This document shows positions 4,672-18,824 of a DNA stretch of 64,000 bases, in pieces. The stretch covers positions 1-64,000 of IMG/VR virus record IMGVR_UViG_3300044972_000601; one strand, given 5' to 3'. Position 1 is the first letter of the stretch. Each line of letters begins with the position of its first letter. This DNA is from a virus. The notes under the pieces were generated by a model. It was not told the DNA's origin. It did not search any database and saw only the letters and a list, made by a program, of their open reading frames with translations. The translations under genes and the position numbers were made by a program.

Positions 4672-4774
4672 ATTATAACACGTTTTGGGCACAGTGTCAA
4701 ACGTGTTAGCAAAGACCCTGTTAGCAGTGTGGGTATTTTTTTGACTTGACGTTTTGGGCATTGTTTGCTATAAT
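4672..4774. promoter_or_regulatory. Divergent sigma70 promoter pair
   Basis: Minus: TTGACA-17-TATAAT (4700-4672); plus: TTGACG-17-TATAAT (4746-4774). Confidence 0.85.
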
Positions 4775-5103: not shown

Positions 5104-5168
5104 AGGGTTATTGACACACTCTTCAAATGGTGCTATAATACATACTTAAACAACAAAGGAGCGAAACG

Positions 5169-5456
5169 ATGAAGTTTACACAAGCAACATGGCAAGAGGC
5201 AAACGGCACTAGCCTGCAGGGTTACATTAATGCAACTTACGCAGACTTGGTAGAGCGTTTTGGTGAGCCCGAATGTGGTGGTGACAAGACTACAGTGGAG
5301 TGGGTGCTGAAGTTTGCGGACGGCACTGTGGCCACTATCTATGATTGGAAACTTGACGAGACGCCCACTGACATGTATAATTGGCACATCGGCGGTAAAA
5401 ACAACACTGCTGTCACTCGCGTTACATCCACATTCAAGCAAGGAGCAACTGTATGA
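5169..5456 (+). CDS. Early hypothetical protein
   Basis: Own promoter plus GGAGCGAA SD. Confidence 0.8.
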   Translation: MKFTQATWQEANGTSLQGYINATYADLVERFGEPECGGDKTTVEWVLKFADGTVATIYDWKLDETPTDMYNWHIGGKNNTAVTRVTSTFKQGATV

Positions 5457-5734
5457 AACAGAATTACACCATGTACTGCTACAAGAAGGACCGCCGTTGC
5501 AAGACTGGCGAGAGACTGTTCTCCACCACAGTGTGGCAGGACCGCACACTGGAGGGATTGGAGCGGGAGATGCGTGACATGTCACGTGACCTATATCCGG
5601 GCACTGACTGGCGGTTTGAGTTCGTTCCCACAATGAAGACTGTGAAGAACTTGATGAGTGGCAAAGACATTCAAATCCCACACGACACACCTCGCTCGTG
5701 CGATCCGTCAAGCGAACTCTACTGGAGCATGTGA
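5453..5734 (+). CDS. Early hypothetical protein
   Basis: GGAGC SD, ATGA overlap. Confidence 0.75.
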   Translation: MKQNYTMYCYKKDRRCKTGERLFSTTVWQDRTLEGLEREMRDMSRDLYPGTDWRFEFVPTMKTVKNLMSGKDIQIPHDTPRSCDPSSELYWSM

Positions 5735-5898
5735 TGAAGAACGAGATTGAACGCTTGAACTTTGTCATTTGGGCAAAGACTCGTTTCCCGGGCTTTACCA
5801 CCAATCATGTACAGTATACCAAGGCCAATCGGGCATGGCGGGCTGTGGCACGTAAAGACCCTATGGTTGACAAGGTTATTAGATCCTGCTATAATTAA
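5734..5898 (+). CDS. Early hypothetical protein
   Basis: MKNEIERLNF; coupled start. Confidence 0.55.
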   Translation: MKNEIERLNFVIWAKTRFPGFTTNHVQYTKANRAWRAVARKDPMVDKVIRSCYN

Positions 5899-5929
5899 GG
5901 CTACAGTAAACAACTAAGGAGCGAAACTT

Positions 5930-6130
5930 ATGCGTACACAGACAACCCGACTGCTAGAGATGATGGACGAAGGTCTTATCTCAGCCCAAGCCATTGCTGA
6001 GATGGCTCTGGCCTACATGAGCGAAGACGATGTGGCAGACATGATGAGGGCCAATGACATCCTGGAGGAAGAGGATGATGGGCAACCCAGCGAATCCCAG
6101 GAGTGGGAATCGTTTGACGCAGACTGCTAA
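5930..6130 (+). CDS. Early acidic hypothetical protein
   Basis: Promoter plus GGAGCGAA SD. Confidence 0.8.
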   Translation: MRTQTTRLLEMMDEGLISAQAIAEMALAYMSEDDVADMMRANDILEEEDDGQPSESQEWESFDADC

Positions 6131-6140
6131 GGAGCACACT

Positions 6141-6515
6141 ATGACACGCTATTACGACGAACTGGCCGTTTACGAACGCAACGGATTTGATATCATTGTG
6201 GACAAATCATATGAAGACCTGGATCCCAAAGACTGTTTTGATGACGACTGCTTCAACATCAAAGAAATGTATTCCGACATCGAGTGCGGGAACCTTGACT
6301 GGTTCATGCTCCGTGTCCGAGTTATGGTTGAGAACATCGAACTCAGCTCGGAGTTCTTGGGCGGATGCTTATACAAAGACGCCCGCGAAGTCCTTACAGA
6401 CGGCACGGCAGAAGACCTCATCGACATGGCTCTGACTGAAGCCAAGAAGGATGTCTACAGGCTGTACAAGAAGTTCCAGGACATCAGCTGGGAACTTGAC
6501 GCACAATCGGTTTGA
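6141..6515 (+). CDS. Early hypothetical protein
   Basis: AAGGAG SD before ATG 6141. Confidence 0.75.
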   Translation: MTRYYDELAVYERNGFDIIVDKSYEDLDPKDCFDDDCFNIKEMYSDIECGNLDWFMLRVRVMVENIELSSEFLGGCLYKDAREVLTDGTAEDLIDMALTEAKKDVYRLYKKFQDISWELDAQSV

Positions 6516-6552
6516 TGCTATAATAAACACTTAAACACACACAGGAGCGAAG

Positions 6553-6888
6553 ATGCTAACCATTCAACAAGTGAATTCAGCTATCATGTTGCAGACATGG
6601 ACCAATGAGCAACTGACCAGCATGATTGATGCAGTCAAGTGGAATCGGGCTACATTGGCCAAGATCACCAAACGTAGCCTCAGCATTGGTGACAACGTGA
6701 ACTTCACATCCAGCAAGACTGGTGTGAATGTAACGGGTGTAGTGACTAAGATTGCCATCAAGTATGTCACGGTGAAGACTGTGCAGGGCTTGTGGAGAGT
6801 GCCAGCCAACATGCTGGAGAAGGTTGAAGAGGAGTGGACTCCGGACAATGCAGACTTCAACGACAGAGGTTCACGTCATCACTATTGA
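6553..6888 (+). CDS. Early hypothetical protein (SH3-like C-terminal pattern)
   Basis: Promoter plus GGAGCGAA SD; IGDNV...GVVTKI...WRVP. Confidence 0.75.
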   Translation: MLTIQQVNSAIMLQTWTNEQLTSMIDAVKWNRATLAKITKRSLSIGDNVNFTSSKTGVNVTGVVTKIAIKYVTVKTVQGLWRVPANMLEKVEEEWTPDNADFNDRGSRHHY

Positions 6889-6928
6889 TTGACAAGGATA
6901 GGTTCATGTGCTATAATAAGCACATGAA

Positions 6929-7143
6929 CAGTTAGATAAGAGTTAAAGGTTACCCACACCGTTAGGCACTGTAAGACGCGAGCACAGAGGGCACTCTACG
7001 CAATCTTACAGTGTATGAAATAGGAGCAAAAGCTCTGGAGATGCGGCGGAGCATGTGGGAAGTAATGACCGTCAAGGCCCGTGAGAGATGCGCTTACAGG
7101 TAGACATAGATTGACAATGGTTCCTTTAGTTCTTTTCTAACTG
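6929..7143 (+). ncRNA. Candidate ~215-nt multi-stem structured RNA
   Basis: 21-bp closing stem 6929-6949/7123-7143 with nested helices; own promoter; followed by tRNA. Confidence 0.65.
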
Positions 7144-7149
7144 AGATTT

Positions 7150-7224
7150 GCCGAGGTAGTCCTCTGGGAGGGCAACGGATTGTCTATCCGACCTAGGCGG
7201 GTTCGATCCCCGTCCTCGGCGCCA
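7150..7224 (+). tRNA. tRNA-Asp (GTC)
   Basis: GCCGAGG/CCTCGGC acceptor stem, TTCGA T-loop, encoded CCA. Confidence 0.85.
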
Positions 7225-7389
7225 TTCAAGGCATTCAGGTAGTCCCTGATGTAAGCCCAATCCATGAACTGTTGTTTTTTCACAACACCCAAAAAAAGAC
7301 CTGGTTGACATCAGGGTCTTTGCACAAGCTGTTGACGTTTTGGTGGAAGTACGCTATAATACATGCATACACACTAAAAAGGACACACA

Positions 7390-7644
7390 ATGCTTACACA
7401 ATGCATAGCAAAAGCAAAATTAGTTTTTAACAAAAAACTCAAAACTTATAAACTTGTTGTAGCGTTTAACGCACACAAAACAATCAAGCCAAACGGGGAC
7501 GTAAAATACAGCTTCCCTACGCAAGCAAAATGCAATTATGTAAGCGGAGATTTGCTTGCAGACAATTTGCAAAACGAGCTTGCAACTGTACTGCCTACAG
7601 TTTATGCAACATTACGCACAAACAGCGTAGAGTTTGTAGATTAA
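7390..7644 (+). CDS. Early hypothetical protein
   Basis: Promoter 7332, AAGGA SD. Confidence 0.75.
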   Translation: MLTQCIAKAKLVFNKKLKTYKLVVAFNAHKTIKPNGDVKYSFPTQAKCNYVSGDLLADNLQNELATVLPTVYATLRTNSVEFVD

Positions 7645-7749
7645 TACTAAAGTTAATGACCTTACCAGCTGTAGGGTTATTACAGCGCATTTGACATTTT
7701 AGCCAAAATGCGCTATAATAACAACTTAGCAACAAAGAAAGTAACAAAA

Positions 7750-7986
7750 ATGGGAATTTACGCAAGCACAGTTAACGCATATGCAGAATCTGCCGCTCGT
7801 GCGCAAGTGTACACTATGCAAAACAAATTGCAAAGCTACGGACAAACAGCACAGCAACTAAATGTTAGCAGTGCAAAGTTCCGCAGGGACATCGAAACTA
7901 AAAAAGCAAAGTTTATTGCAAAAATGCAAAAAGACAAAATTGCAAAAATGCAAGCAGAGATTGCACACTTGCAAGCAACAGTTTAA
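7750..7986 (+). CDS. Early hypothetical protein (basic, coiled-coil-like)
   Basis: Promoter 7691. Confidence 0.65.
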   Translation: MGIYASTVNAYAESAARAQVYTMQNKLQSYGQTAQQLNVSSAKFRRDIETKKAKFIAKMQKDKIAKMQAEIAHLQATV

Positions 7987-8003
7987 TTTTTAAGGAGCAA
8001 AAC

Positions 8004-8393
8004 ATGTTAGAAAACACTTTTACATTGCACACAAACGGACGCGGCTATTGGTCGCGCAAAGCAACTGCTGTAACTGTTGAGGCGCTAGACTTGCAGTACA
8101 TTACAAACGACAAGGACTTTGGCGAGCTGTGCATACACTTTAACACAAACGATTGGGACACAAAAACAGACGGGCTTATATACACAGACAAAAAGTTTAT
8201 GTCGGAACTGCGCACATACTTGCAAACTGTGGGCTTTACGCAAGCGGAAGCCGACGACGTTAGCTACAGCGAGCAGGGGATGCAAAGCGACAATTATGTT
8301 AGCTGTGACGTAGGGGCTGTGTTTATAGCGGGCTTAGAGCGTTTAGAGCCGGAGCATGTGCAAGCTGTGTATAAGGAGTGCGAGGATGTTTAA
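8004..8393 (+). CDS. Early hypothetical protein
   Basis: AAGGAG SD. Confidence 0.8.
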   Translation: MLENTFTLHTNGRGYWSRKATAVTVEALDLQYITNDKDFGELCIHFNTNDWDTKTDGLIYTDKKFMSELRTYLQTVGFTQAEADDVSYSEQGMQSDNYVSCDVGAVFIAGLERLEPEHVQAVYKECEDV

Positions 8394-8631
8394 CGTAACA
8401 TGCAAGCAACTAGACGACACACTACAATGGACGGGTGCTGTTGCAATTATTGCGGGCCATGTGCTTAACGCTGTAGGGCCTAGCATGTACCCCTACAACA
8501 TTGCAGTATTTGCTGTGGGCACGGTTGCGTTTTTGGCATGGGCCGTGCGTGTGCGCAACATGCCGCAAGCTGTTGTCAACCTCGTAGCATTAGCCATAGG
8601 GCTAGTAGGGTTATACAACGCTGTTGGTTGA
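8386..8631 (+). CDS. Small membrane protein (3 hydrophobic segments)
   Basis: Hydrophobic stretches; start uncertain. Confidence 0.65.
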   Translation: MFNVTCKQLDDTLQWTGAVAIIAGHVLNAVGPSMYPYNIAVFAVGTVAFLAWAVRVRNMPQAVVNLVALAIGLVGLYNAVG

Positions 8632-8683
8632 CGTTTTGGCTAAAGTGCGTTATAATACACACATAGCAACAAAGGAGCACACA

Positions 8684-8839
8684 ATGAGAGACGCAATACT
8701 TGCAAAGCTAGCGGAAGTAGAAGAGATGCTGTTAGAGGCAACGCTGGACGGCGAGCAACTGGCAGAGATGGCAGTGTTTGAAGAAGTGACTGGGGCGTTG
8801 AACACGCTGACAGAAGCGGTTGACTACTACGTGGATTGA
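8684..8839 (+). CDS. Early acidic hypothetical protein
   Basis: Promoter 8628, AAGGAG SD. Confidence 0.75.
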   Translation: MRDAILAKLAEVEEMLLEATLDGEQLAEMAVFEEVTGALNTLTEAVDYYVD

Positions 8840-8880
8840 CTGTATAATTAACACTTAAACAAACATTAGGAGCGAACCAA

Positions 8881-9153
8881 ATGGACAAATACGAAATTGT
8901 AGATATGTTTGAGCAAAACTTTATGACCCGCAGTGAAGGCGAGACCGGCGTAAAGAACTTGGAAAACGTGTGCGAGATCCTGGGCTACGGCACGGGCTTT
9001 ATGCGTAACCGTGCTATTGAGGAGTTCCTCACAGACAATCCGGGTGCTGTAGAAGCCCTGTTCCAGTTTATTACAGAGTGGGCCGTACGCAACTCCGACT
9101 GGCAAGCTGGCATGGAAGATGCTCTTGCTGAAGAGGGGTTGGTTGACGAGTAA
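8881..9153 (+). CDS. Early hypothetical protein
   Basis: Promoter plus GGAGCGAA SD. Confidence 0.8.
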   Translation: MDKYEIVDMFEQNFMTRSEGETGVKNLENVCEILGYGTGFMRNRAIEEFLTDNPGAVEALFQFITEWAVRNSDWQAGMEDALAEEGLVDE

Positions 9154-9201
9154 GCCAAAAGCTGTTATAATACACACATCAACAACACATTGGAGCGAAC
9201 A

Positions 9202-9441
9202 ATGAAAGTATCACAACTCATCGAAGCATTGCAAAGCATGGACCCAACACTGGACGTTCACTTTAGCTACTGCTATGGCGACCACTGGCGCACAGAGGTG
9301 GCCCCTGCTGTGTCACACATTGACATGGGCATAGTGGGTTACAGCGAGTACCACCGTATGGACAAAGTCATCGAAGTTGATTATGACGACGAGGACAGCG
9401 CCGACGAGTGCAAGGGCAAACCCGTAGTTCTTATTGCTTAA
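9202..9441 (+). CDS. Early hypothetical protein
   Basis: MKVSQLIEALQ; GGAGCGAA SD places the start at 9202. Confidence 0.8.
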   Translation: MKVSQLIEALQSMDPTLDVHFSYCYGDHWRTEVAPAVSHIDMGIVGYSEYHRMDKVIEVDYDDEDSADECKGKPVVLIA

Positions 9442-9450
9442 GGAGCAGAC

Positions 9451-9705
9451 ATGATTACAGCAGACACACTAGAGGTTCTAACAGATTTTGGACCACAGTA
9501 TCTAACCAGAGCCGCACAGGATGCAGGCTACAGAGGTCCTAACTTCACATCGTGCAAGTTCCTGGGCATCACTAATGGCGGCCAGTTCTGCTACATGGGT
9601 GTCTTCCAAGTAGAGGGCGGTACTGACAGCACAAAGGTCTTCCTTACATATGACCACACAGAGGATAAGGTCTTTGCAGACGTTCAGTTGACAGACTGGG
9701 CTTGA
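9451..9705 (+). CDS. Early hypothetical protein
   Basis: AAGGAG SD. Confidence 0.75.
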   Translation: MITADTLEVLTDFGPQYLTRAAQDAGYRGPNFTSCKFLGITNGGQFCYMGVFQVEGGTDSTKVFLTYDHTEDKVFADVQLTDWA

Positions 9706-9748
9706 TACGCTATAATATACGCTTACACAAACACACTAGGAGCACACA

Positions 9749-10225
9749 ATGGGAACACGTTCAACAATCGCATTGGAATTCGCAGACGGCACAGTAGAGC
9801 AAGTGTATTGCCACTGGGACGGCTATCTCGAGCACAACGGCAAAATCCTTGCTGAACACTATTCAGATCCGTTCAAACTGCGTGACTTGATTGATCAAGG
9901 CAGCATCAGTTCGCTGGGCAAGGTTGTTGGCAATACACATCCTTTCAGCCCATTCGAAGGCGAGACACAGAAAGCACAGTACGAAGCGGCAATGGCAGCG
10001 GGTGCAACTACATTCTACGCACGAGATCGTGGCGAGGAGTTGCAAGTAGAGAAGTTCAACGACTTCCAGGACTACTTGGCTCATCACCAGTATGAGGAAT
10101 ACGAGTACATCCTACGCCGGGACGGCAACTGGTACGTTCAATGCCACGATGACGCCTTTGTTACATTAAAGTCTGCAATCGCAGACGAACAAGATCGAAT
10201 TGCACAAGAGGAGACAGCAGAATGA
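9749..10225 (+). CDS. Conserved phage early protein (MGTRS...YCHWDGY type)
   Basis: Recognisable motif; own promoter. Confidence 0.8.
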   Translation: MGTRSTIALEFADGTVEQVYCHWDGYLEHNGKILAEHYSDPFKLRDLIDQGSISSLGKVVGNTHPFSPFEGETQKAQYEAAMAAGATTFYARDRGEELQVEKFNDFQDYLAHHQYEEYEYILRRDGNWYVQCHDDAFVTLKSAIADEQDRIAQEETAE

Positions 10226-10413
10226 GCAAGATGGCCGAACTAGCATACGATATCGAGCAACTATACATCGAGGGCCTGCATCCTACAAAGATTGCCAAAG
10301 AGCTCGACTGTCCGTTGACAGTGGTCTACGATTGGTTGGAATCATGTAGCTTGGAAGCAGATGTTGCGGAAAAGCCACAGGATGAACCTTACAGCCCTTA
10401 CTTGGGCGCTTGA
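10222..10413 (+). CDS. Small HTH-like hypothetical protein
   Basis: GLHPTKIAKELDCPLTVVYDWL resembles a helix-turn-helix. Confidence 0.6.
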   Translation: MSKMAELAYDIEQLYIEGLHPTKIAKELDCPLTVVYDWLESCSLEADVAEKPQDEPYSPYLGA

Positions 10414-10463
10414 CACTCTGGGCTTTTGGTTGTATAATTACTACATACAGACAGGAGCACACA

Positions 10464-10604
10464 GTGAAAATCATAATCAAAGTACCAAAGAAGCACAGAG
10501 AACACATCATCCTGTTCTGTACAGGCACACCTTTCCGGCAGAAGGTTGTGCAGAGCAAGATCCAATACCGTCGTCAACCCAAACACAAAGGACGCGAGCA
10601 ATGA
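10464..10604 (+). CDS. Small basic hypothetical protein
   Basis: GTG start with AGGAG SD after promoter 10410. Confidence 0.6.
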   Translation: MKIIIKVPKKHREHIILFCTGTPFRQKVVQSKIQYRRQPKHKGREQ

Positions 10605-10816
10605 ACGAACGAATTGATGAATTGTGGCAAGAGGCAGTAGACGCCACGTGGATTGATAATTCTAAGTCTGCTCACGAAAAGTTCGCCGAGTTGATTGTGC
10701 GGGAATGTAAAGAGAACTTTGGTAAAGTTTGGTATGAACAAGGTTTAGATATTCGTGGTGCAGAATTTGGTAAGTTTATGACACGGTTTGAAGAACATTT
10801 CGGAGTTGAAAAATGA
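10601..10816 (+). CDS. MNERI/HFGVEE-family mini-protein
   Basis: MNERIDEL...EKFAELIVREC...HFGVEK. Confidence 0.85.
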   Translation: MNERIDELWQEAVDATWIDNSKSAHEKFAELIVRECKENFGKVWYEQGLDIRGAEFGKFMTRFEEHFGVEK

Positions 10817-11010
10817 ACGAACGAATTAACCTACTGTTGGAACAGTCCGGCCTCCAGCCTTATTACGATGCACAAGAGGGCCAAATCGAAAAGTTCGCCC
10901 AGTTGATTGTGCAGGAATGTATGGAAGAAGTTATGACTTACCAGCATCACCGCAATCCTACTATACCGTTCATAGTAGAAGATATTAAAAAACATTTCGG
11001 AGTTGGTTGA
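10813..11010 (+). CDS. MNERI/HFGVEE-family mini-protein
   Basis: MNERINLL...EKFAQLIVQEC...HFGVG. Confidence 0.85.
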   Translation: MNERINLLLEQSGLQPYYDAQEGQIEKFAQLIVQECMEEVMTYQHHRNPTIPFIVEDIKKHFGVG

Positions 11011-11065
11011 CAGGACTAGCCAATCCTGCTATAATACACACATGGACAACGCAAAAGGAAGCAAG

Positions 11066-11311
11066 ATGAACAAACAATGCTACGTTAGATTCAACGAAGA
11101 CCTGCATGTTCTCTACAATGATCGTTTCATCCGCGTGTCGCTGTTCACGTTCGAGGACGGCGGCCAACGATGCTGTCATTTGAGCGGGCCGGTGGGCTGG
11201 GAACTCAGCCACACAGGGTCCGAAGCTGACGGAAAGTTTGAAGAGCTGTTGGGCCTAGAAGAAGTCTCGTGGGATGACTTGAAGCGGCTGGGCTTCACAC
11301 AATACGGTTGA
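11066..11311 (+). CDS. Early hypothetical protein
   Basis: Follows a cassette promoter. Confidence 0.7.
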   Translation: MNKQCYVRFNEDLHVLYNDRFIRVSLFTFEDGGQRCCHLSGPVGWELSHTGSEADGKFEELLGLEEVSWDDLKRLGFTQYG

Positions 11312-11360
11312 CAGGACTAGCCAATCCTGCTATAATACACGCATACACTAGGAGCACAAG

Positions 11361-11585
11361 ATGATCGTACACAATGTTCAAGTCTACCCAGTCTATGCTG
11401 GTCATATCAATGATCACAAGGTCATCAGAGAGGAAGAGTTTAACTCCCGTGAGGATGCACTCATGTGGGTAGGATACTACAACCAGCATGAGCACTGGAA
11501 CCAAAATGATTGGGCTGAGAACGGCAACGGCGTCGTTGCTGTCTACACTGGCATGATTGATACTGAAACAGGAGAGAATCTATGA
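11361..11585 (+). CDS. Early hypothetical protein
   Basis: Follows a cassette promoter, AGGAG SD. Confidence 0.75.
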   Translation: MIVHNVQVYPVYAGHINDHKVIREEEFNSREDALMWVGYYNQHEHWNQNDWAENGNGVVAVYTGMIDTETGENL

Positions 11586-11818
11586 ACGAACGAATTCTAA
11601 AACTTGCCAAGCAGTCGGGTATGCGATCACCAGACTTGTTTAAACTTACAGTATCTCATATGTCCACAGATACCTTAGAAAAGTTCGCCGAGTTGATTGT
11701 GAAAGAATGTGTTAAATTACAATATAAAAATGTCGTAGTTGGTGGCGTGTCTGACTACAACCGGGGCAGGCGAGAATTGACGGAAGATATTCAAAAACAT
11801 TTTGGAGAAAACCTATGA
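11582..11818 (+). CDS. MNERI/HFGVEE-family mini-protein
   Basis: MNERILKL...EKFAELIVKEC...HFGENL. Confidence 0.85.
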   Translation: MNERILKLAKQSGMRSPDLFKLTVSHMSTDTLEKFAELIVKECVKLQYKNVVVGGVSDYNRGRRELTEDIQKHFGENL

Positions 11819-12033
11819 TTGAGATCCAAGGATTTAGCCCTAAGCAAATGGCACTGGCAGACATCATGTGGGCCATCAGCACCAAGGAAGGTGTGGATGC
11901 GTTCATCGCAACCCTGCCAAAGGCAGAGCGCCGTGAGTGCGAATTGGTGAAAGAGATGTTGGTCCTGGCCTTCCTGGACGAGATTGTTAATACCCAGGAA
12001 GCTAGCATGGTAATTGACAAGTTTCGTCTTTGA
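11815..12033 (+). CDS. Early hypothetical protein
   Basis: ATGA-coupled. Confidence 0.75.
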   Translation: MIEIQGFSPKQMALADIMWAISTKEGVDAFIATLPKAERRECELVKEMLVLAFLDEIVNTQEASMVIDKFRL

Positions 12034-12073
12034 TGTTATAATACATACTTACACACAGCAACTAGGAGCAACA

Positions 12074-12340
12074 ATGAAAGCACTACAGAACTTCGTAGAC
12101 CAGAAGAATCACTGGAACTCATTCTTCAAAGGCGAGCAGTATGAGATTTCTACTGCCAAGGGTCGTCAGCGTGTCGCAGACATGATTGATTCGGCTCTGA
12201 GTCCAGAGAATCTCACATGCGATGGCGAACTCAGCAGAACAGAGGTCAACCGCCGCTACAAGGAATTGAGCACAGCGGCCCGGCAGTTGAAGAAGCTGGA
12301 TCCAGCTGTTACCTTTTACGAATACGAAGGAGAGTTTTAA
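12074..12340 (+). CDS. Early hypothetical protein (LSPENLTCDGEL motif)
   Basis: Promoter 12014, AGGAG SD. Confidence 0.75.
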   Translation: MKALQNFVDQKNHWNSFFKGEQYEISTAKGRQRVADMIDSALSPENLTCDGELSRTEVNRRYKELSTAARQLKKLDPAVTFYEYEGEF

Positions 12341-12341
12341 T

Positions 12342-12956
12342 ATGCCTAATTGGTGCAACAACTCGGTAGAGATCTACCACGCTGACCCTGCTATGATTGA
12401 GCGGGTGCGTAAAGGCTTCAACGACGGCGGCTTGCTCAGTGAACTGCTACCATGCCCACAAGAGCTCACAGAAACTGTGTCAGGCTCCATGGGTGAGGAC
12501 AAGCGGGCTGAACACGAAGCACAGCAAGCAGCCAATGTTGAGAAGTATGGCTATGCCAACTGGTATGACTTCTGCGTGAACGAATGGGGCACCAAGTGGG
12601 ATGTGGGTGCAGATGGCAACCCAGCACAGGATATCCCAGGTGGGTTGATGTTGGGATTCGAGTCAGCATGGAGTCCTCCAATCGGTGCTTACGAGAAACT
12701 GACTGACTTGGGTTTCACCATCCGTGCCATGTATTACGAGCCTGGCATGGCATTTGCAGGCATTTGGGAAGACGGCCAGGATGACTACTATGAGTATGGT
12801 GGACTAGACTCAGCAGGCATTGCTGAAGCATTGCCCGTGGAATTGGACGAGGCGTTTGGTATCAGCGAATCGGCGGCTGAGTGGGAAGAAGAGAATCAAG
12901 AGATTGATTTAGATGACGGCCTTAGTGCCATTAACGAACAAGAAGAACTAAAATGA
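12342..12956 (+). CDS. MPNWC-type protein (YubB/DUF1281 ferredoxin-like)
   Basis: MPNWC...WGTKWD...FESAWSPP...YYEPGMAFAG. Confidence 0.7.
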   Translation: MPNWCNNSVEIYHADPAMIERVRKGFNDGGLLSELLPCPQELTETVSGSMGEDKRAEHEAQQAANVEKYGYANWYDFCVNEWGTKWDVGADGNPAQDIPGGLMLGFESAWSPPIGAYEKLTDLGFTIRAMYYEPGMAFAGIWEDGQDDYYEYGGLDSAGIAEALPVELDEAFGISESAAEWEEENQEIDLDDGLSAINEQEELK

Positions 12957-13089
12957 AAAACACAAACCCTAATCGTGAGAAGAACATGGAACATGATAAC
13001 CGCGAGGTCATTCGCCCTAAGACCAAGTTCTATGAGTACAAAGAGCTTGAGCAGGTGGTTGCCAACTGGATTAGGCAGAGTCAATCAAA

Positions 13090-13353
13090 ATGAGCAGACT
13101 TGAATTGATTGGCAGGCCGTTCACGGTATTCGATCCAGAGAACAAACAGCATCGGCGTTGGTACTTTGAATTCGTCAAAAGCTCTACCTGGGGACAATGC
13201 CCAGTTCGATTTGTGGTAGCCGATGATCAAGGCGATTTGGTTACCATGATTCAACGCAGTTTGATCAAGTTCTATGTGGAGCGTGAGTTCCGCAAGACAG
13301 CAGTTCCGACTCCTTTGGTTCGCCAAAAGAGGAAGAAAGCGGTTGACAACTAA
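13090..13353 (+). CDS. Hypothetical protein
   Basis: ORF in operon. Confidence 0.7.
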   Translation: MSRLELIGRPFTVFDPENKQHRRWYFEFVKSSTWGQCPVRFVVADDQGDLVTMIQRSLIKFYVEREFRKTAVPTPLVRQKRKKAVDN

Positions 13354-13426
13354 CCCAAATAGTTGTATAATTAGAACATGAACAAGGCGTTCATGTTTTT
13401 TAACACACACATAAGAGGTATTTAAA

Positions 13427-13780
13427 ATGGCTACAGATAAGAAGTTTACGGTTGCTGGTATTAGCAAACTCAATGGCGAGTACAAGGTTCGCTTTGCCAA
13501 TGACATCATGCGTATCAAAGTGCTTGCAAAACACGGTCACGAAGACATTCGCCTGGCTGATCTCGAAGGCGAGTTCACCAAGTTGGATGCGGCTCGTGCT
13601 ATCCTTGCATTGGAAGACTTTGAAGATGCAACTGCACAGGCAACCATCACAGAGTATATTGAAGACAATACGCCCAAGGCCAAGTCTGCTCCTGCTCCTA
13701 AGGCGGTTGCAAAAGCTGCACCTAAGGCCAAAGCAGTCAAGACAGCCAAGGTTACTGAAGACGAAGACGCACCATTCTAA
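13427..13780 (+). CDS. Hypothetical protein with Ala/Lys-rich tail (possible DNA-binding)
   Basis: GAGG SD; PAPKAVAKAAPKAKA tail and acidic end EDEDAPF. Confidence 0.75.
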   Translation: MATDKKFTVAGISKLNGEYKVRFANDIMRIKVLAKHGHEDIRLADLEGEFTKLDAARAILALEDFEDATAQATITEYIEDNTPKAKSAPAPKAVAKAAPKAKAVKTAKVTEDEDAPF

Positions 13781-13884
13781 GCTATCAAGCCCGGGCCTGT
13801 TGATATCGCCTGACTGTTCCTACATAGTACGCACAGTCTGCAACAATCGACTCCCCGGGCTTCTTAACACAACTGAGCAAAGCA

Positions 13885-14076
13885 ATGACCAACTGGGTTC
13901 AATACGAAGTCTGGGCTGAAGACGACGATGGGCATCAAGAGCTTGTCGAAACCACAGCAAGTAAGAAGGAAGCATTGAGTGTGGCACAAAAAGCATTCAA
14001 TGAGGGTGCGGGCATAGTTACTGTGCATGAAGAAACATCAGACGGCAGCTATGAGTTGATAAAAGAGTTTAAATAA
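13885..14076 (+). CDS. Hypothetical protein
   Basis: ORF before the tRNAs. Confidence 0.65.
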   Translation: MTNWVQYEVWAEDDDGHQELVETTASKKEALSVAQKAFNEGAGIVTVHEETSDGSYELIKEFK

Positions 14077-14082
14077 CACACC

Positions 14083-14160
14083 GGGCCCTTAGCTCATGTT
14101 GGTTAGAGCAGTGGACTCATAATCCATTGGTGCTGTGTTCGACTCACAGAGGGCCCACCA
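14083..14160 (+). tRNA. tRNA-CAT, probably Ile2 (lysidine type)
   Basis: GGGCCCT/AGGGCCC acceptor like bacterial Ile2; loop CTCATAA; CCA end. Confidence 0.85.
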
Positions 14161-14164
14161 ATTC

Positions 14165-14239
14165 CTGGCGTTCGTATAATGGATAATACAGGGGATTTCT
14201 ACTCCCCTAATAGCGGTTCGATTCCGTTACGCCGGACCA
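14165..14239 (+). tRNA. tRNA-Arg (TCT)
   Basis: GGGGA-TTTCTAC-TCCCC anticodon arm, TTCGA T-loop, CCA end. Confidence 0.85.
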
Positions 14240-14252
14240 CTACAAGGATGAT

Positions 14253-14456
14253 ATGACTGAACAAGAACAACGAGATGCAGCAATGGCAGAGTTCCTAGCC
14301 AAGGGTGGAGTGATCCAGCAAGTGGCCAATGGAGTCAGTGGCCGTGTGGAAGGTGTATCCTACTCAGCTTGGGGAGCACCACGCAAAGCAGGGCGTCCAG
14401 CCGCAGAGAAGAGCATTGCACCAACTGAAGAACCTGAAGAAGACATGGACGAATAG
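14253..14456 (+). CDS. SutA-like RNAP-binding small protein
   Basis: AMAEFLAKGGVIQQV resembles the SutA EEFLARGGKVQ motif; acidic tail. Confidence 0.55.
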   Translation: MTEQEQRDAAMAEFLAKGGVIQQVANGVSGRVEGVSYSAWGAPRKAGRPAAEKSIAPTEEPEEDMDE

Positions 14457-14541
14457 TGTTGCGAAAACGCAACACATTTTTGGTTGACGCTCTGCCCAAG
14501 AGGCTGTATAATTAAGACTTAAACAGCAAACAGGAGCGAAG

Positions 14542-14733
14542 ATGGGTTACAAAGTTCTAAACACCGTAGACAATATGCGTGACAACTATGGCCCACGTCC
14601 AGGACTAGAAGGTCCATTCAACTTCAGCGGCAGGGTTCTGTACTACGATCCTAAAGAAGGTCAGTACTGGGATCCCCGCAGTGACTTCTATGTCAGTCAC
14701 TCAGAGTACTTCCAACTGGTTGGTTTAATCTAA
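14542..14733 (+). CDS. Early hypothetical protein (LEGPF...YYDPKEGQY motif)
   Basis: Promoter plus GGAGCGAA SD. Confidence 0.8.
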   Translation: MGYKVLNTVDNMRDNYGPRPGLEGPFNFSGRVLYYDPKEGQYWDPRSDFYVSHSEYFQLVGLI

Positions 14734-14837
14734 GGAGAACACAATGACAGACTTTCAAATACTCATAACGGTGGCAGTGATTGCAGTCATCGTTGCCGTT
14801 AAGATTTGGATACTCACTAAGATTTAAGGAGCACAAA

Positions 14838-14996
14838 ATGACAGGACTAGACTTTGCAGATATTCGCATAGGACGCATGTTCCACCTCAACGGTTGCGAC
14901 TACGTCAAACAATCAACTCGCACAGCCCGTATGCTCAGCAACGGACGCATCTTTTACTTTGGCAAGACTGAGTACGTTCACCCTGCGGCGTGGTAG
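14838..14996 (+). CDS. Early hypothetical protein
   Basis: AAGGAG SD. Confidence 0.7.
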   Translation: MTGLDFADIRIGRMFHLNGCDYVKQSTRTARMLSNGRIFYFGKTEYVHPAAW

Positions 14997-15061
14997 GATT
15001 GGTTGACAGGACTAGCCAATCCTGCTATAATACACACATGGACAACGCAAAAGGAAACGAA

Positions 15062-15337
15062 ATGCTCAAGCATCAGATCAAGCACGTCAAGGCTGCTATT
15101 GCTACTGAATCCAAATATCGGGCCGCTGATGCCGCGGTGAAGAAGTTCCAAGATGCTGCCCAAGCCAACTACGACACTTCTGCTTTCGCTAACGGCTACT
15201 TGGGGTCAATGGTTGCGGGCATGGCAGCACAGCACCTGACTAAGGCGCAGTTCGCAGAGTTTTTGGTGGCAATGGAGCAGTCGGCAGCCAAGCAACAGGC
15301 CGAAGTGGATGCGAAAAAGAAGTACAAATTGGCTTGA
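15062..15337 (+). CDS. Early hypothetical protein
   Basis: Between two cassette promoters. Confidence 0.75.
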   Translation: MLKHQIKHVKAAIATESKYRAADAAVKKFQDAAQANYDTSAFANGYLGSMVAGMAAQHLTKAQFAEFLVAMEQSAAKQQAEVDAKKKYKLA

Positions 15338-15395
15338 CAGGACTAGCCAATCCTGCTATAATACACACATGGACAGCAACACACTGGAGCACACA

Positions 15396-15767
15396 ATGCA
15401 AGAATACACACTGACCCGCATGGAAGAACTTCAAAGCATCCACTGGGACATGTACAAGGATGCCTATAACTTCCGCCCACGGCATGTGGACACTAGCGGT
15501 TGGACTGAAGCCCAGTTCGAAGCTGAGTTCGAACAGTTGGCAGAAGTGATCCGCCGTGAAAGCCAACTCCGTGAACAGGCTGAGGACGCGGCTTCCATCG
15601 CGTTCGAAATGCGGATGCAGAGCCTGATGATGTCGGGTGCTAAGAGCTACGAGATGGCACTTCGTTGGGTCCACGAAGCTGAAGGCACCAGCGGCGATGA
15701 CGAGTTCCTTGCTTGGACTTTGGACTTGCCCTACCGCTATTTTGCAGTTGACAAGGCCACAGTTTGA
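15396..15767 (+). CDS. Early hypothetical protein (DMYKDAYNFRPR motif)
   Basis: GGAG SD after a cassette promoter. Confidence 0.8.
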   Translation: MQEYTLTRMEELQSIHWDMYKDAYNFRPRHVDTSGWTEAQFEAEFEQLAEVIRRESQLREQAEDAASIAFEMRMQSLMMSGAKSYEMALRWVHEAEGTSGDDEFLAWTLDLPYRYFAVDKATV

Positions 15768-15954
15768 TAGTATAATAAACACATAAACAGCAACAAGGTG
15801 ATCCTCGTATGTAAGAACCCAGCAGAAATGCAAAAAGGGTTGTAACCAAGGGATCCTAAGAGAGTTCGGAGACTCTGCCCAATATGTAGTTAGGTTGACA
15901 ACTTGCCAAAGTAGTTGTATAATAAACACTTACACACACAAGGGAGCGACCCAA

Positions 15955-16338
15955 ATGACTACTATTAACTATGACCGTTTTGCCAGTTTTGACATTAACG
16001 AGTGCTGTGACCACTTTGACAGCGAGAAGCAGAGCAACTGGAAGAAGATAAACAAGTTCATCATTGCAGATGGACAAGAGTACGCCCACATTATGGAAAC
16101 AGAGTTTGACTTTGAAGACACAGGTGATGGCGAGTACGAGGCCTTCCAAGCAGGCGTTAAGTATGCACTGACCAAGATGAACATTGCCTTTGAGGCCGCC
16201 GCAGTGGATCTCCAGGTATGCGAGGTGGACTTGGTAGAGAGCATGGGCTTTGTGCTGGTACGTGCAGACGACGAGCCCGAGGACTTTGTAAAACGAGTGC
16301 TTAAGAAGCCCGTTATGATGGTTGACAGCTGGGTCTAA
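15955..16338 (+). CDS. Early acidic hypothetical protein
   Basis: Promoter 15895, GGAGCGAC SD. Confidence 0.75.
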   Translation: MTTINYDRFASFDINECCDHFDSEKQSNWKKINKFIIADGQEYAHIMETEFDFEDTGDGEYEAFQAGVKYALTKMNIAFEAAAVDLQVCEVDLVESMGFVLVRADDEPEDFVKRVLKKPVMMVDSWV

Positions 16339-16381
16339 AGCTGTTATAATTACTACTTAAACAACACACAGGAGCGAACCT

Positions 16382-16735
16382 ATGTTAGCACAAGCAACAG
16401 TTATCACACAAGAAGCAGTTCAAAACGCTTGCAACGAAGCAGGCATCCAAGCCCGTACAGCGGCCAAAGCATTCCACGCCAAACACGGCGACAGAGATGC
16501 ATGCGGCTTTGCGTGGGTCAACGTGTTTGGCGTTCGTTCAAACAGCAAAGTGGGCAAGTGGCTACAGGCCGCAGGCTTCCGCAAAGACTACACGGGTGCA
16601 TTGAGCTTGTGGAACCCCAGCGGCTTCCCTACTCAATCAATCAGCATTTTGGAAGCGGGAGCAGATGCCTACGCCCAAGTGCTCAAAGACAAGTTGGGTC
16701 TGGACAAGGTCTACAGCGGAAGCAGAATGGACTAA
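16382..16735 (+). CDS. Early hypothetical protein (CGFAWV motif)
   Basis: Promoter plus GGAGCGAA SD. Confidence 0.8.
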   Translation: MLAQATVITQEAVQNACNEAGIQARTAAKAFHAKHGDRDACGFAWVNVFGVRSNSKVGKWLQAAGFRKDYTGALSLWNPSGFPTQSISILEAGADAYAQVLKDKLGLDKVYSGSRMD

Positions 16736-16807
16736 CCAAAATACATGACAGAGCCGCAAGGTTCTGTTATAATTAAATCTTTAAACAGCGTAAATAAAGG
16801 AACACAA

Positions 16808-17692
16808 ATGGCTAAAGTCGTTACATCAAAGATGCTTATGGCACTACAATCAGAAGTTACCAGCAAGACTCTTGAAGTCGAAGCTGTGAAGAAGGATCTG
16901 TCTAAAGAAACGGATGAAGAGATACTGACTCGTTTGAGAGATCGTTTTGAGATCCTGGACGACATGACTCGTGCAGTTAAGAGCGGCAAGGTACGTGCTA
17001 TGATTGTCACAGGCCCTCCGGGTGTGGGCAAGAGCCACGGTGTTGAGACTGTGTTGTCAAAGCACGATGTGTTTGCCAATGTGGCACAGGACGAGAAGCT
17101 GAAGAAGTATGAAGTAGTCAAAGGTGCTATGAGTGCCCTGGGCTTGTACTCTAAGCTGTATCACTACAAGGATGCCAAGAACATTCTAGTGTTTGATGAC
17201 TGTGACAGTGTGCTGTTGGATGACTTGAGCTTGAACATTCTTAAGGCAGCATTGGATACATCCAGCAAGCGTATGATCCATTGGAACACTGACTCACACC
17301 TATTGCGTCGTGAAGGCGTGCCAGACAGCTTTGAGTTCAAGGGCGGTGCTATCTTTATTACCAACATCAAGTTCGATCACGTTAAGTCAAAGAAGCTCCG
17401 CGATCACTTGGAAGCATTGGAGTCACGCTGCCACTACTTGGACCTTACTATCGACACAGAGCGTGAGAAGATCCTACGCATTGAGCAGGTGGTTAACGAG
17501 TGCGGTATGCTGGACAAGTATGAGTTCGAACCCTACCAAGCAATGGAGGTAGTGGACTTTGTTAAGGCCAACGTGCATCGCCTGCGTGAGCTGAGCTTGC
17601 GTACAGTCCTTAAGGTAGCTGACTTGAAGCATGGCTTCCCAGACAAGTGGAAGGCAGTAGCAGAGGTAACGTGTATGCGTAACAGCCGTTAA
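16808..17692 (+). CDS. AAA-type P-loop ATPase
   Basis: Walker A GPPGVGKS, Walker B ILVFDD, sensor FITN, ALESR. Confidence 0.85.
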   Translation: MAKVVTSKMLMALQSEVTSKTLEVEAVKKDLSKETDEEILTRLRDRFEILDDMTRAVKSGKVRAMIVTGPPGVGKSHGVETVLSKHDVFANVAQDEKLKKYEVVKGAMSALGLYSKLYHYKDAKNILVFDDCDSVLLDDLSLNILKAALDTSSKRMIHWNTDSHLLRREGVPDSFEFKGGAIFITNIKFDHVKSKKLRDHLEALESRCHYLDLTIDTEREKILRIEQVVNECGMLDKYEFEPYQAMEVVDFVKANVHRLRELSLRTVLKVADLKHGFPDKWKAVAEVTCMRNSR

Positions 17693-17747
17693 GCTGTACG
17701 TGTATGCAGTACAGTAAGCAGCCACTAAGAGCTGTGCTGTACACAAG

Positions 17748-17861
17748 GTCTCGCCAACGATTCGCTCCCGGCAACGAGACTCCTAGCCCGGAAGGATGTC
17801 CGGGCAGTGTGATCCCTGACAATAAATCCGATTCGCTCCCGGTATGTCAGGGATTCTTTTT
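17748..17861 (+). ncRNA. Candidate three-hairpin sRNA ending in a terminator-like stem
   Basis: Two hairpins carry the same 14-mer CGATTCGCTCCCGG; U-run after the last stem. Confidence 0.6.
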
Positions 17862-18153
17862 GATTAAAATATCGGTCGGGGCATGCAAAATAAAAAAGAT
17901 TTCGAGAGGGGTGGGGGACTATACAAATGATTTACTGTTGTATTTTTACAACAGCGCATGCAAAATCAACTCACCATAGGTGCCAAATCACCCCACCAAA
18001 AGCAAAAGTACTTCTCTATATTTTTTTACGCACAAGAAATTTGCGGAGCAAAGGACCCATTCGGGGACTTCAAACTAACCCCGTATAGTGCGTAAGTACT
18101 GCTCAAATTTTTTCTGCGTATATTTTTTTTGAACCTTACAACACCATTCTCGC

Positions 18154-18161
18154 TATAAATA
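18154..18161 (+). promoter_or_regulatory. T4-type late promoter TATAAATA
   Basis: Exact consensus 6 nt before ORF 18168. Confidence 0.7.
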
Positions 18162-18167
18162 CACTGT

Positions 18168-18824
18168 ATGAAAATTATTGAAATACTTGAACCCACTGCG
18201 GAGCCCACAACCACTGCCACACCCACAACTCCCGCTAAGAAGTTTCAAGATATTGCCACTTTGCAAAAGGATCCTGATGCACTGGTCAATACTTGGGCAC
18301 CACGATTAAATCAATTGCAAGCACGTTGTAACAGCATGTTAGCCAGACTCGTTCAAGCAGCTGGAGCACCATGGGCGAAAAAGCTAGCAGGCACTACTAT
18401 CACAGTAAGAAGCACTGATCAGTACGTACAAGCCAATGCACAGGATCGTACTATTATCATAGACATTACAGTGTTTTGGGACGCACCAGATGCCACACTG
18501 GCAGTGGCCATAGGACATGAACTTGGCCATATTGCACTGGCACACATAGGTGCACCAGCAACACCTGCAGTTTCACGTAAGGATGAGTTTGATGCTGATG
18601 ACTTTGGTATTAAGCTGGCCAAATTACTAGGTTACAACACTGCTGAATTGTTCAAGTTCATGCACAGTAAGGAAGAGTATGATTGGACTAACTTTGTATC
18701 CAGCATGCCCAATAGTACGCATCCAAATTATCAACAGCGTATTGATCGTGCTAAGAAGGCAGGGTTTAAATTATCCAAGGGCGGACAACAACAGATCAAC
18801 GCCCTACAACAGCATTTGGCCTAG
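18168..18824 (+). CDS. M48-family zinc metallopeptidase
   Basis: GHELGH, EFDAD, STHP...QRI motifs. Confidence 0.8.
   Translation: MKIIEILEPTAEPTTTATPTTPAKKFQDIATLQKDPDALVNTWAPRLNQLQARCNSMLARLVQAAGAPWAKKLAGTTITVRSTDQYVQANAQDRTIIIDITVFWDAPDATLAVAIGHELGHIALAHIGAPATPAVSRKDEFDADDFGIKLAKLLGYNTAELFKFMHSKEEYDWTNFVSSMPNSTHPNYQQRIDRAKKAGFKLSKGGQQQINALQQHLA

Follow-up and report, generated by a model that had tools for sequence, protein, structure and literature searches.

The cuckoo or CcsR1-4 (alpha-r14) sRNAs of Alphaproteobacteria are derived from 3'UTRs and consist of two to four hairpins with a common loop that resembles an anti-Shine-Dalgarno (anti-SD) sequence (PMC4615179; PMC8034643). In phages P1 and P7, the c4 antisense RNA blocks the translation of a phage mRNA through loops that pair around the ribosome-binding site (RBS) of the latter (PMC12197685), and in Staphylococcus aureus a C-rich motif within the 3'UTR of the icaR mRNA pairs with the Shine-Dalgarno (SD) sequence, blocking initiation and creating a substrate for RNase III (PMC3868564). 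The hairpin element described here, which forms the 3' untranslated tail of an nrdC.10-like gene in the genome of an uncultured giant phage, shares features with each of these systems. Like the cuckoo/CcsR RNAs, it has adjacent hairpins whose stems vary strongly but whose loops repeat one C-rich, anti-SD-like motif. Unlike those RNAs, whose loop reads CCUCCUCCC, it has loops that read A-UUCGCUCC or, in a sister clade, (U)GCCCUC; moreover, it is encoded by a phage, the gene upstream codes for an nrdC.10-like ATPase (phrog_1250) and not for a DUF1127 protein, and the loop motif matches, and co-varies with, a private RBS extension of its own genome.

As in the case of c4, the putative RNA is encoded by a phage and has loops complementary to the RBS region of its targets. 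Specificity in P1 and P7 is set by matched differences between the c4 loops and their targets. However, c4 is found in temperate phages, where it acts on a single operon (icd-ant) located downstream on the same transcript, whereas the element closes a gene block on the 3' side and is downstream of many separate targets, in a lytic-type giant phage. With icaR it has in common a C-rich 3'UTR motif complementary to the SD region, the pairing being predicted in our case; icaR is one mRNA acting on itself, whereas the element combines repeated loops with a private tag and with many targets, including distant ones. The use of the intrinsic terminator of an mRNA, with no promoter of its own, also resembles the 3'UTR-derived sRNAs of the CpxQ/DapZ type. 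Regarding membership in the described families, no Rfam model matches the element, including that of C4, and no sequence similarity to c4 was found. Considering that motif, context and models differ, the element is a member of neither cuckoo/CcsR, c4 nor icaR.

In phage T4, early genes are shut off post-transcriptionally at or next to the SD (GGAG) by the endoribonuclease RegB and the translational repressor RegA, which are proteins and, the element being an RNA, functional analogues only. To our knowledge, the only means by which large lytic phages are known to shut off the translation of their early genes are proteins (T4 RegA and RegB), whereas a family of uncultured phages of approximately 350 kb seems to rely on an RNA that reads a private SD extension.

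The hairpin element and its genomic setting

The window analyzed in this study covers the initial 64 kb of an IMG/VR virus record of 108 kb, whose completeness is estimated at 30%. The genes of the window include those for a myovirus tail sheath, a DnaB-like helicase and virion proteins. Since the genomes of its relatives reach 345-356 kb, the record is regarded as a fragment of an uncultured giant (lake) phage. Between positions 4746 and 16773 of the plus strand, approximately 23 near-consensus sigma-70 promoters, all in the same orientation and with a spacer of 17 bp, are found together with small ORFs, at a density of about 2 per kb, and the leaders behind these early promoters have a ACTTAAACAAC-like sequence in common. 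The last gene of this early block encodes the protein similar to nrdC.10 of T4 (Table 1), whose tblastn matches were the nrdC.10 genes of T4-like phages and of the Pseudomonas phage PA5oct, the closest cultured homologue (44% identity). No hairpin element was found in the corresponding region of PA5oct (MK797984.1, 248735-249933), where the next gene starts 43 nt after the nrdC.10-like gene. Within the early block of the window, the only other clean terminator-like hairpin, GTGTTGCG-AAAA-CGCAACAC followed by a T-run, is located at 14456-14475, just 5' of the promoter at 14484 and 3' of a tRNA-Met/tRNA-Arg pair at 14083-14239.

An earlier note on this DNA had described three hairpins followed by a U-run behind the last early gene, with an identical 14-mer in the first and the third, and all of these are present in the sequence. 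A hairpin without the motif (hairpin 0), added here, extends the element to roughly 17709-17861. The 14-mer CGATTCGCTCCCGG has exactly two copies in the window (17758 and 17829) when up to two mismatches are allowed (0.04 expected), and these are also its only sites in the whole 108-kb record. RNAfold placed the two copies in loops of 9 nt, each above a short inner stem of CG or CCG/CGG, and the fold of the element showed a z-score of -3.1 in comparison to shuffled sequences. The GC-rich hairpin at 17812-17854 is directly followed by the U-run, as expected for an intrinsic (Rho-independent) terminator, and both are located 120-170 nt past the stop codon of the nrdC.10-like gene. A promoter-like site was not found between 17692 and 17748, and therefore the element would be made as the tail of early mRNAs.

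Hairpin 1 also has an internal loop (CCAA/GCAA, 17754-17759 and 17769-17774), which flanks the motif with the sequence CCAACG...CGG(C/T)AA. This arrangement is kept in most of the first hairpins of clade A, the clade of the window, and on the minus strand it would give consecutive G-U pairs.

The screening of the window with Rfam at the gathering threshold returned two tRNAs only, and a search restricted to 17650-18200 with E values up to 5 revealed nothing relevant to the element. Besides, blastn of the region 16700-18200 against GenBank phages gave no match and a full-text literature search found no description of the element. Two other identities were considered for the hairpins and rejected, namely a CRISPR-repeat mimic, as the repeat unit has only 15 nt and a variable spacing, and a mimic of the tRNA T-loop, as there is no equivalent of A58.

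Table 1. Positions in the window of the hairpins, the early ribosome-binding sites and the gene preceding the element.
Feature	Positions	Strand	Description
Tagged RBS GGAGCGAA	5158-5165	+	promoter 5111, ATG 5169, 95-aa ORFan; duplex -13.3 kcal/mol
Tagged RBS GGAGCGAA	5918-5925	+	promoter 5867, ATG 5930, 66 aa
Tagged RBS GGAGCGAA	6544-6551	+	promoter 6496, ATG 6553, 111 aa
Leader	8628		GGAGCACA
Tagged RBS GGAGCGAA	8869-8876	+	promoter 8820, ATG 8881, 90 aa
Tagged RBS GGAGCGAA	9192-9199	+	promoter 9143, ATG 9202, 79 aa
Tagged RBS GGAGCGAA	14533-14540	+	promoter 14484, ATG 14542, 63 aa, phrog_13298
Near-tag RBS GGAGCGAC (7 of 8 positions)	15943-15950	+	promoter 15895, ATG 15955, 127 aa
Tagged RBS GGAGCGAA	16371-16378	+	promoter 16322, ATG 16382, 117 aa, phrog_22149
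nrdC.10-like gene, last of the early block	16745-17692	+	315 aa; phrog_1250, E=2.9e-82
Hairpin 0, motif-less	17709-17742 (approx.)	+	GTACAGTAAGCAGC / GCTGTGCTGTAC; folds likewise in many relatives
Hairpin 1	17748-17780	+	GTCTCG/CGAGAC 6-bp outer stem; loop A-UUCGCUCC at 17760-17768
Hairpin 2, GC-rich spacer, motif-less	17786-17805	+	GCCCGGA/TCCGGGC
Hairpin 3, intrinsic terminator	17812-17861	+	ATCCCTGACA/TGTCAGGGAT at 17812-17854, then TTCTTTTT to 17861; 10-bp outer stem, CCG/CGG inner stem; loop A-UUCGCUCC at 17831-17839; U-run 17854-17861

Ribosome-binding sites complementary to the loops

The octamer GGAGCGAA, which is composed of the SD core GGAG and a private 4-nt extension, CGAA, occurs at seven plus-strand sites from 5158 to 16371 and at one stray position (37406), when 0.82 sites were expected, and none of 100 shuffled sequences reached a count of 10. 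Each of the seven sites is located approximately 20-25 nt past a TTGAC(A/G/T)-17-TATAAT promoter and 1-4 nt before an ATG, with an A/C-rich leader between the promoter and the octamer. These observations agree with the earlier note, which had listed seven early genes sharing this RBS, each behind its own promoter, and had mentioned the related site GGAGCGAC at 15943 as well as the use of GGAGCAC or GGAGCAA by other early genes, both of which are also found in promoter-proximal leaders. The tag marks the first gene behind seven or eight of the approximately 23 early promoters. Six further promoter-proximal leaders have GGAGCAC or GGAGCAA (a seventh GGAGCAA is found about 60 nt downstream of the 5353 promoter), the remaining leaders have weak SDs, and the middle and late genes use GGAGAA or AGGAA as SD, or none. 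The proteins encoded by the tagged genes have 63-127 aa and do not belong to any informative family.

The loop sequence is exactly complementary over 8 nt to the seven RBSs and over 7 nt to the eighth. Duplexes calculated for the loop only had energies of approximately -13 kcal/mol with the eight tagged leaders (-12.1 kcal/mol for the near-tag at 15943), -8.8 kcal/mol with the six GGAGCA leaders, and -5 kcal/mol or weaker with the rest. When the whole element was used in duplexfold or cofold against the leaders, tagged and untagged leaders were not separated, and spurious contacts dominated the energies. The complement of the 3' tail of the 16S rRNA (the anti-SD region) would read GGAGGUGA. 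The CGAA and GCA extensions are not matched by this tail, and thus the phage loop is their only known partner. Judging from the sequences, the loops very probably base-pair with the private RBS tag. An 8-bp helix within a 9-nt loop would be sterically tight, and the real helix may therefore be shorter or require the opening of the inner stem.

Conservation and co-variation in related phages

Relatives were retrieved using the nrdC.10-like gene as an anchor, with 80 loci found initially and more added later, and the element is kept after this same gene in approximately 130 related viral contigs. Nearly all the loci found with the anchor have one to three hairpins directly 3' of the gene, with stems that differ among them, and the near-complete genomes (roughly 350 kb) have one copy of the element each. 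A homologue of hairpin 1 is present in the relatives, while hairpin 2 differs among them in length and sequence. The loop G-A-UUCGCUCC-C was invariant in 105 distinct instances. A covariance model built on the terminal hairpin (R1) recognized hairpin 3 of the window with 50.3 bits (E=2e-9) and found one match per locus among the relatives; the MAFFT alignment misaligned the outer stems, recovering the inner three pairs only. In 58 distinct homologues of the terminal hairpin, 100% of the modelled cells were paired, compared to at most 54% in slid controls, and the covariation of the stems amounted to 177 double-change cells against 42.7 in shuffles, with none of 500 shuffles being as high.

The tag is equally frequent in the relatives of the window. 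Upstream of the element, the gene strand of 76 distinct loci contains 236 GGAGCGAA sites in 341 kb (5.2 expected); 233 of them are followed by a start codon within 8 nt, and for 197 there is a promoter no more than 65 nt away. On the downstream side of the element, 11 sites were found in 76 loci, and in a relative of 356 kb, eight of the ten forward sites fall within the block whose end is marked by the element. Counting against the pairing, the relatives L156, L177, and L235 have loops that still read UUCGCUCC even though their GGAGCGAA leaders are few.

The sister clade (clade B), first seen at L242 and also including L267 and L270, comprises 59 loci that have the same gene and layout, with early leaders reading (A)GAGGGCAA; this sequence accounts for 103 of 206 GAGG leaders. 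The hairpin loops behind the gene read GCCCUC, often UGCCCUC, and 88 of 97 motifs fell within hairpin loops of the MFE folds. Elements of clade B have two to six motif hairpins, compared to one to three in clade A. Co-variation of loop class and RBS class in related genomes had been proposed in advance by the earlier note as a check of the pairing, and it was observed: among 169 distinct loci, A leaders occurred with A loops in 81 and B leaders with B loops in 33, and there was no cross combination. Of the 12 loci with A leaders that seemed to be without the element, 11 have the hairpin approximately 0.8-0.9 kb further on, past one extra gene. Placed in register, the pairs UUCGCUCC/GGAGCGAA and UGCCCUC/GAGGGCA differ by two compensatory pair changes. 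The co-variation is essentially one clade-level switch together with a small within-clade hint, and thus represents few independent events.

Within clade A, the locus L177 (G004:C1:160962-169454) has a second loop, CUCGCUCC, with GGAGCGAG leaders on both sides and no nearby plus-strand GGAGCGAA, which may be a case of within-clade co-variation based on two sites. In a third clade, with leaders AAAGGGCAC or AAGAGGCAC, no element was found near the gene and the GTGCCC matches fall in coding sequence, while the locus L302 shows C-rich loops and AGAGGA leaders but has no close relatives, and a third tag/loop pair was therefore not established. Pairing of the loops with helix 24 of the 16S rRNA was also considered and rejected, being an 8-mer coincidence that leaves clade B unexplained.

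Hairpins recognized by proteins, such as boxB and the MS2 operator, typically keep their loop constant while the stem varies, and this is also found here, where one of the motif hairpins is the terminator. The loops could accordingly be sites for a protein (a processing enzyme or a factor of termination or antitermination) or a dsDNA operator, their complementarity to the leaders being incidental. We consider this highly unlikely, as it leaves unexplained the exact complement present in hundreds of leaders and its joint change in the sister clade; moreover, a dsDNA operator would not need co-varying stems.

Strand, mode of action and putative role

The co-variation of loop and tag suits a mimic as well as a complement, and the earlier note had raised the alternative that the opposite strand is the functional RNA, whose hairpins would display GGAGCGAA as a decoy titrating a tag-binding protein or the ribosome. 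Naive folding and the first G-U tests on MFE folds indeed favored the minus strand slightly, a tendency attributed to the conserved CCAA/GCAA internal loop and to an invariant A.C beside the loop. However, 97 of 103 clade-A loci and 33 of 53 clade-B loci have a T-run after their last hairpin, whereas an A-run before the first hairpin was seen in two and none of them, respectively. A minus-strand sigma-70 promoter within 400 nt was found at one clade-B locus and at no clade-A locus (156 in total), while the flanking genes and promoters are on the plus strand, many relatives having a plus-strand promoter and gene immediately after the element. Additionally, a strand-neutral search for helices, in which G-U and A-C were scored alike, counted 104 G-U against 59 A-C, favoring the plus strand. 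Taken together, the terminator, promoter, and wobble evidence point to an element that functions as a plus-strand RNA and disfavor the decoy, which we regard as very improbable.

The tagged RBSs of the window are all located upstream of the element on the same strand, with a single intervening terminator-like site at 14456, and the element lacks its own promoter. This arrangement would suit a purely cis pairing, for which the icaR 3'UTR is a precedent (PMC3868564), in which the loops bind the tagged RBSs of the same read-through mRNA and, as soon as the block has been transcribed to its end, close the first cistron of that mRNA with no diffusible sRNA. Near-complete relatives, however, have tagged RBSs on the opposite strand and at distances of hundreds of kb. 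In two of these genomes, six of the 12 far-away GGAGCGAA sites are RBSs with an ATG 2-4 nt after, and in the loci L385 and L380 (G001:C1:283763 and G002:C1:278913-278960) a far gene, whose protein starts with MALVDSVLN or MSLIDSVLN, carries at or just before its RBS the sequence GGGAGCGAAUCG, the 12-nt complement of the loop and its closing stem. Relatives of the L175 type also have tagged leaders just downstream of the terminator, and in a purely cis model two loops only would face seven to eight or more sites per genome. The distant tagged RBSs and the tagged leaders beyond the terminator favor an action in trans, and the RNA probably acts in this way, either as a 3'UTR-derived sRNA or as an mRNA tail; cis pairing inside read-through transcripts is also possible, but we consider it unlikely that the pairing is exclusively of this kind. 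The plus-strand RNA reading a shared early RBS that the earlier note had envisaged is thus supported by the co-variation of tag and loop, and the trans component of that proposal is favored by the distant sites.

According to the explanation that, as a whole, we consider likely, the element would be a structured plus-strand RNA that gives the early transcripts stopping behind the nrdC.10-like gene a common 3' end, and the 9-nt loop A-UUCGCUCC would be exposed on two of its hairpins, one of them the terminator. The loop would pair over 8 nt with GGAGCGAA and cover the SD, which most likely would block the binding of the 30S subunit and possibly also trigger cleavage by an RNase. With the build-up of early transcription, the tagged early genes would be turned down. 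The repression, the processing and the role in timing are what we infer from sequence analysis.

This analysis reveals the pairing alone and gives no sign of its direction, and in T4-like phages RegB attacks the GGAG of early SDs. A real pairing could therefore be positive or protective, shielding the tagged leaders from an endonuclease, or stabilizing or localizing them. Nonetheless, occlusion of the SD normally blocks initiation, as in icaR, c4 and the sRNAs with C-rich loops (PMC3868564, PMC12197685), and the search with RegA and RegB Pfam models in the record and two near-complete relatives (G000-G002) detected no homologue, with the control genomes giving no match either. A protective effect thus seems quite improbable, and repression through SD occlusion is the reading that we adopt.

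If this repression is true, the tag and the loop would constitute a simple, portable, and orthogonal translational switch, the uniformity of the early leaders in these phages would be explained, and a sequence rule would be available to predict the genes of one regulon in an uncultured phage. The existence of two natural tag/loop pairs makes the hypothesis directly testable. On a more speculative note, and with considerable doubt, the system may represent an addressing based on RNA only, in which a lineage-private SD tag on early genes and a few distant ones evolves in concert with one multi-loop reader RNA, making related phages mutually orthogonal. In that case, the RNA of a phage could silence, or fail to silence, the early genes of a co-infecting relative, similar to the heteroimmunity of P1/P7 c4.

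Between the terminator and the next gene, a non-coding block of approximately 300 nt (17862-18167) is conserved in the relatives. It contains the G-rich boxes GGTCGGGGC and GGTGGGGGAC, a TATA-like box, and the inverted repeat ACTGTTGTA-TTTT-TACAACAG, in addition to GGTGCCAAATCACC and GTACTTCT..TATAATTTTTTACGCG. This block, for which Rfam gave no match, may represent a further RNA or a promoter region specific to the phage.
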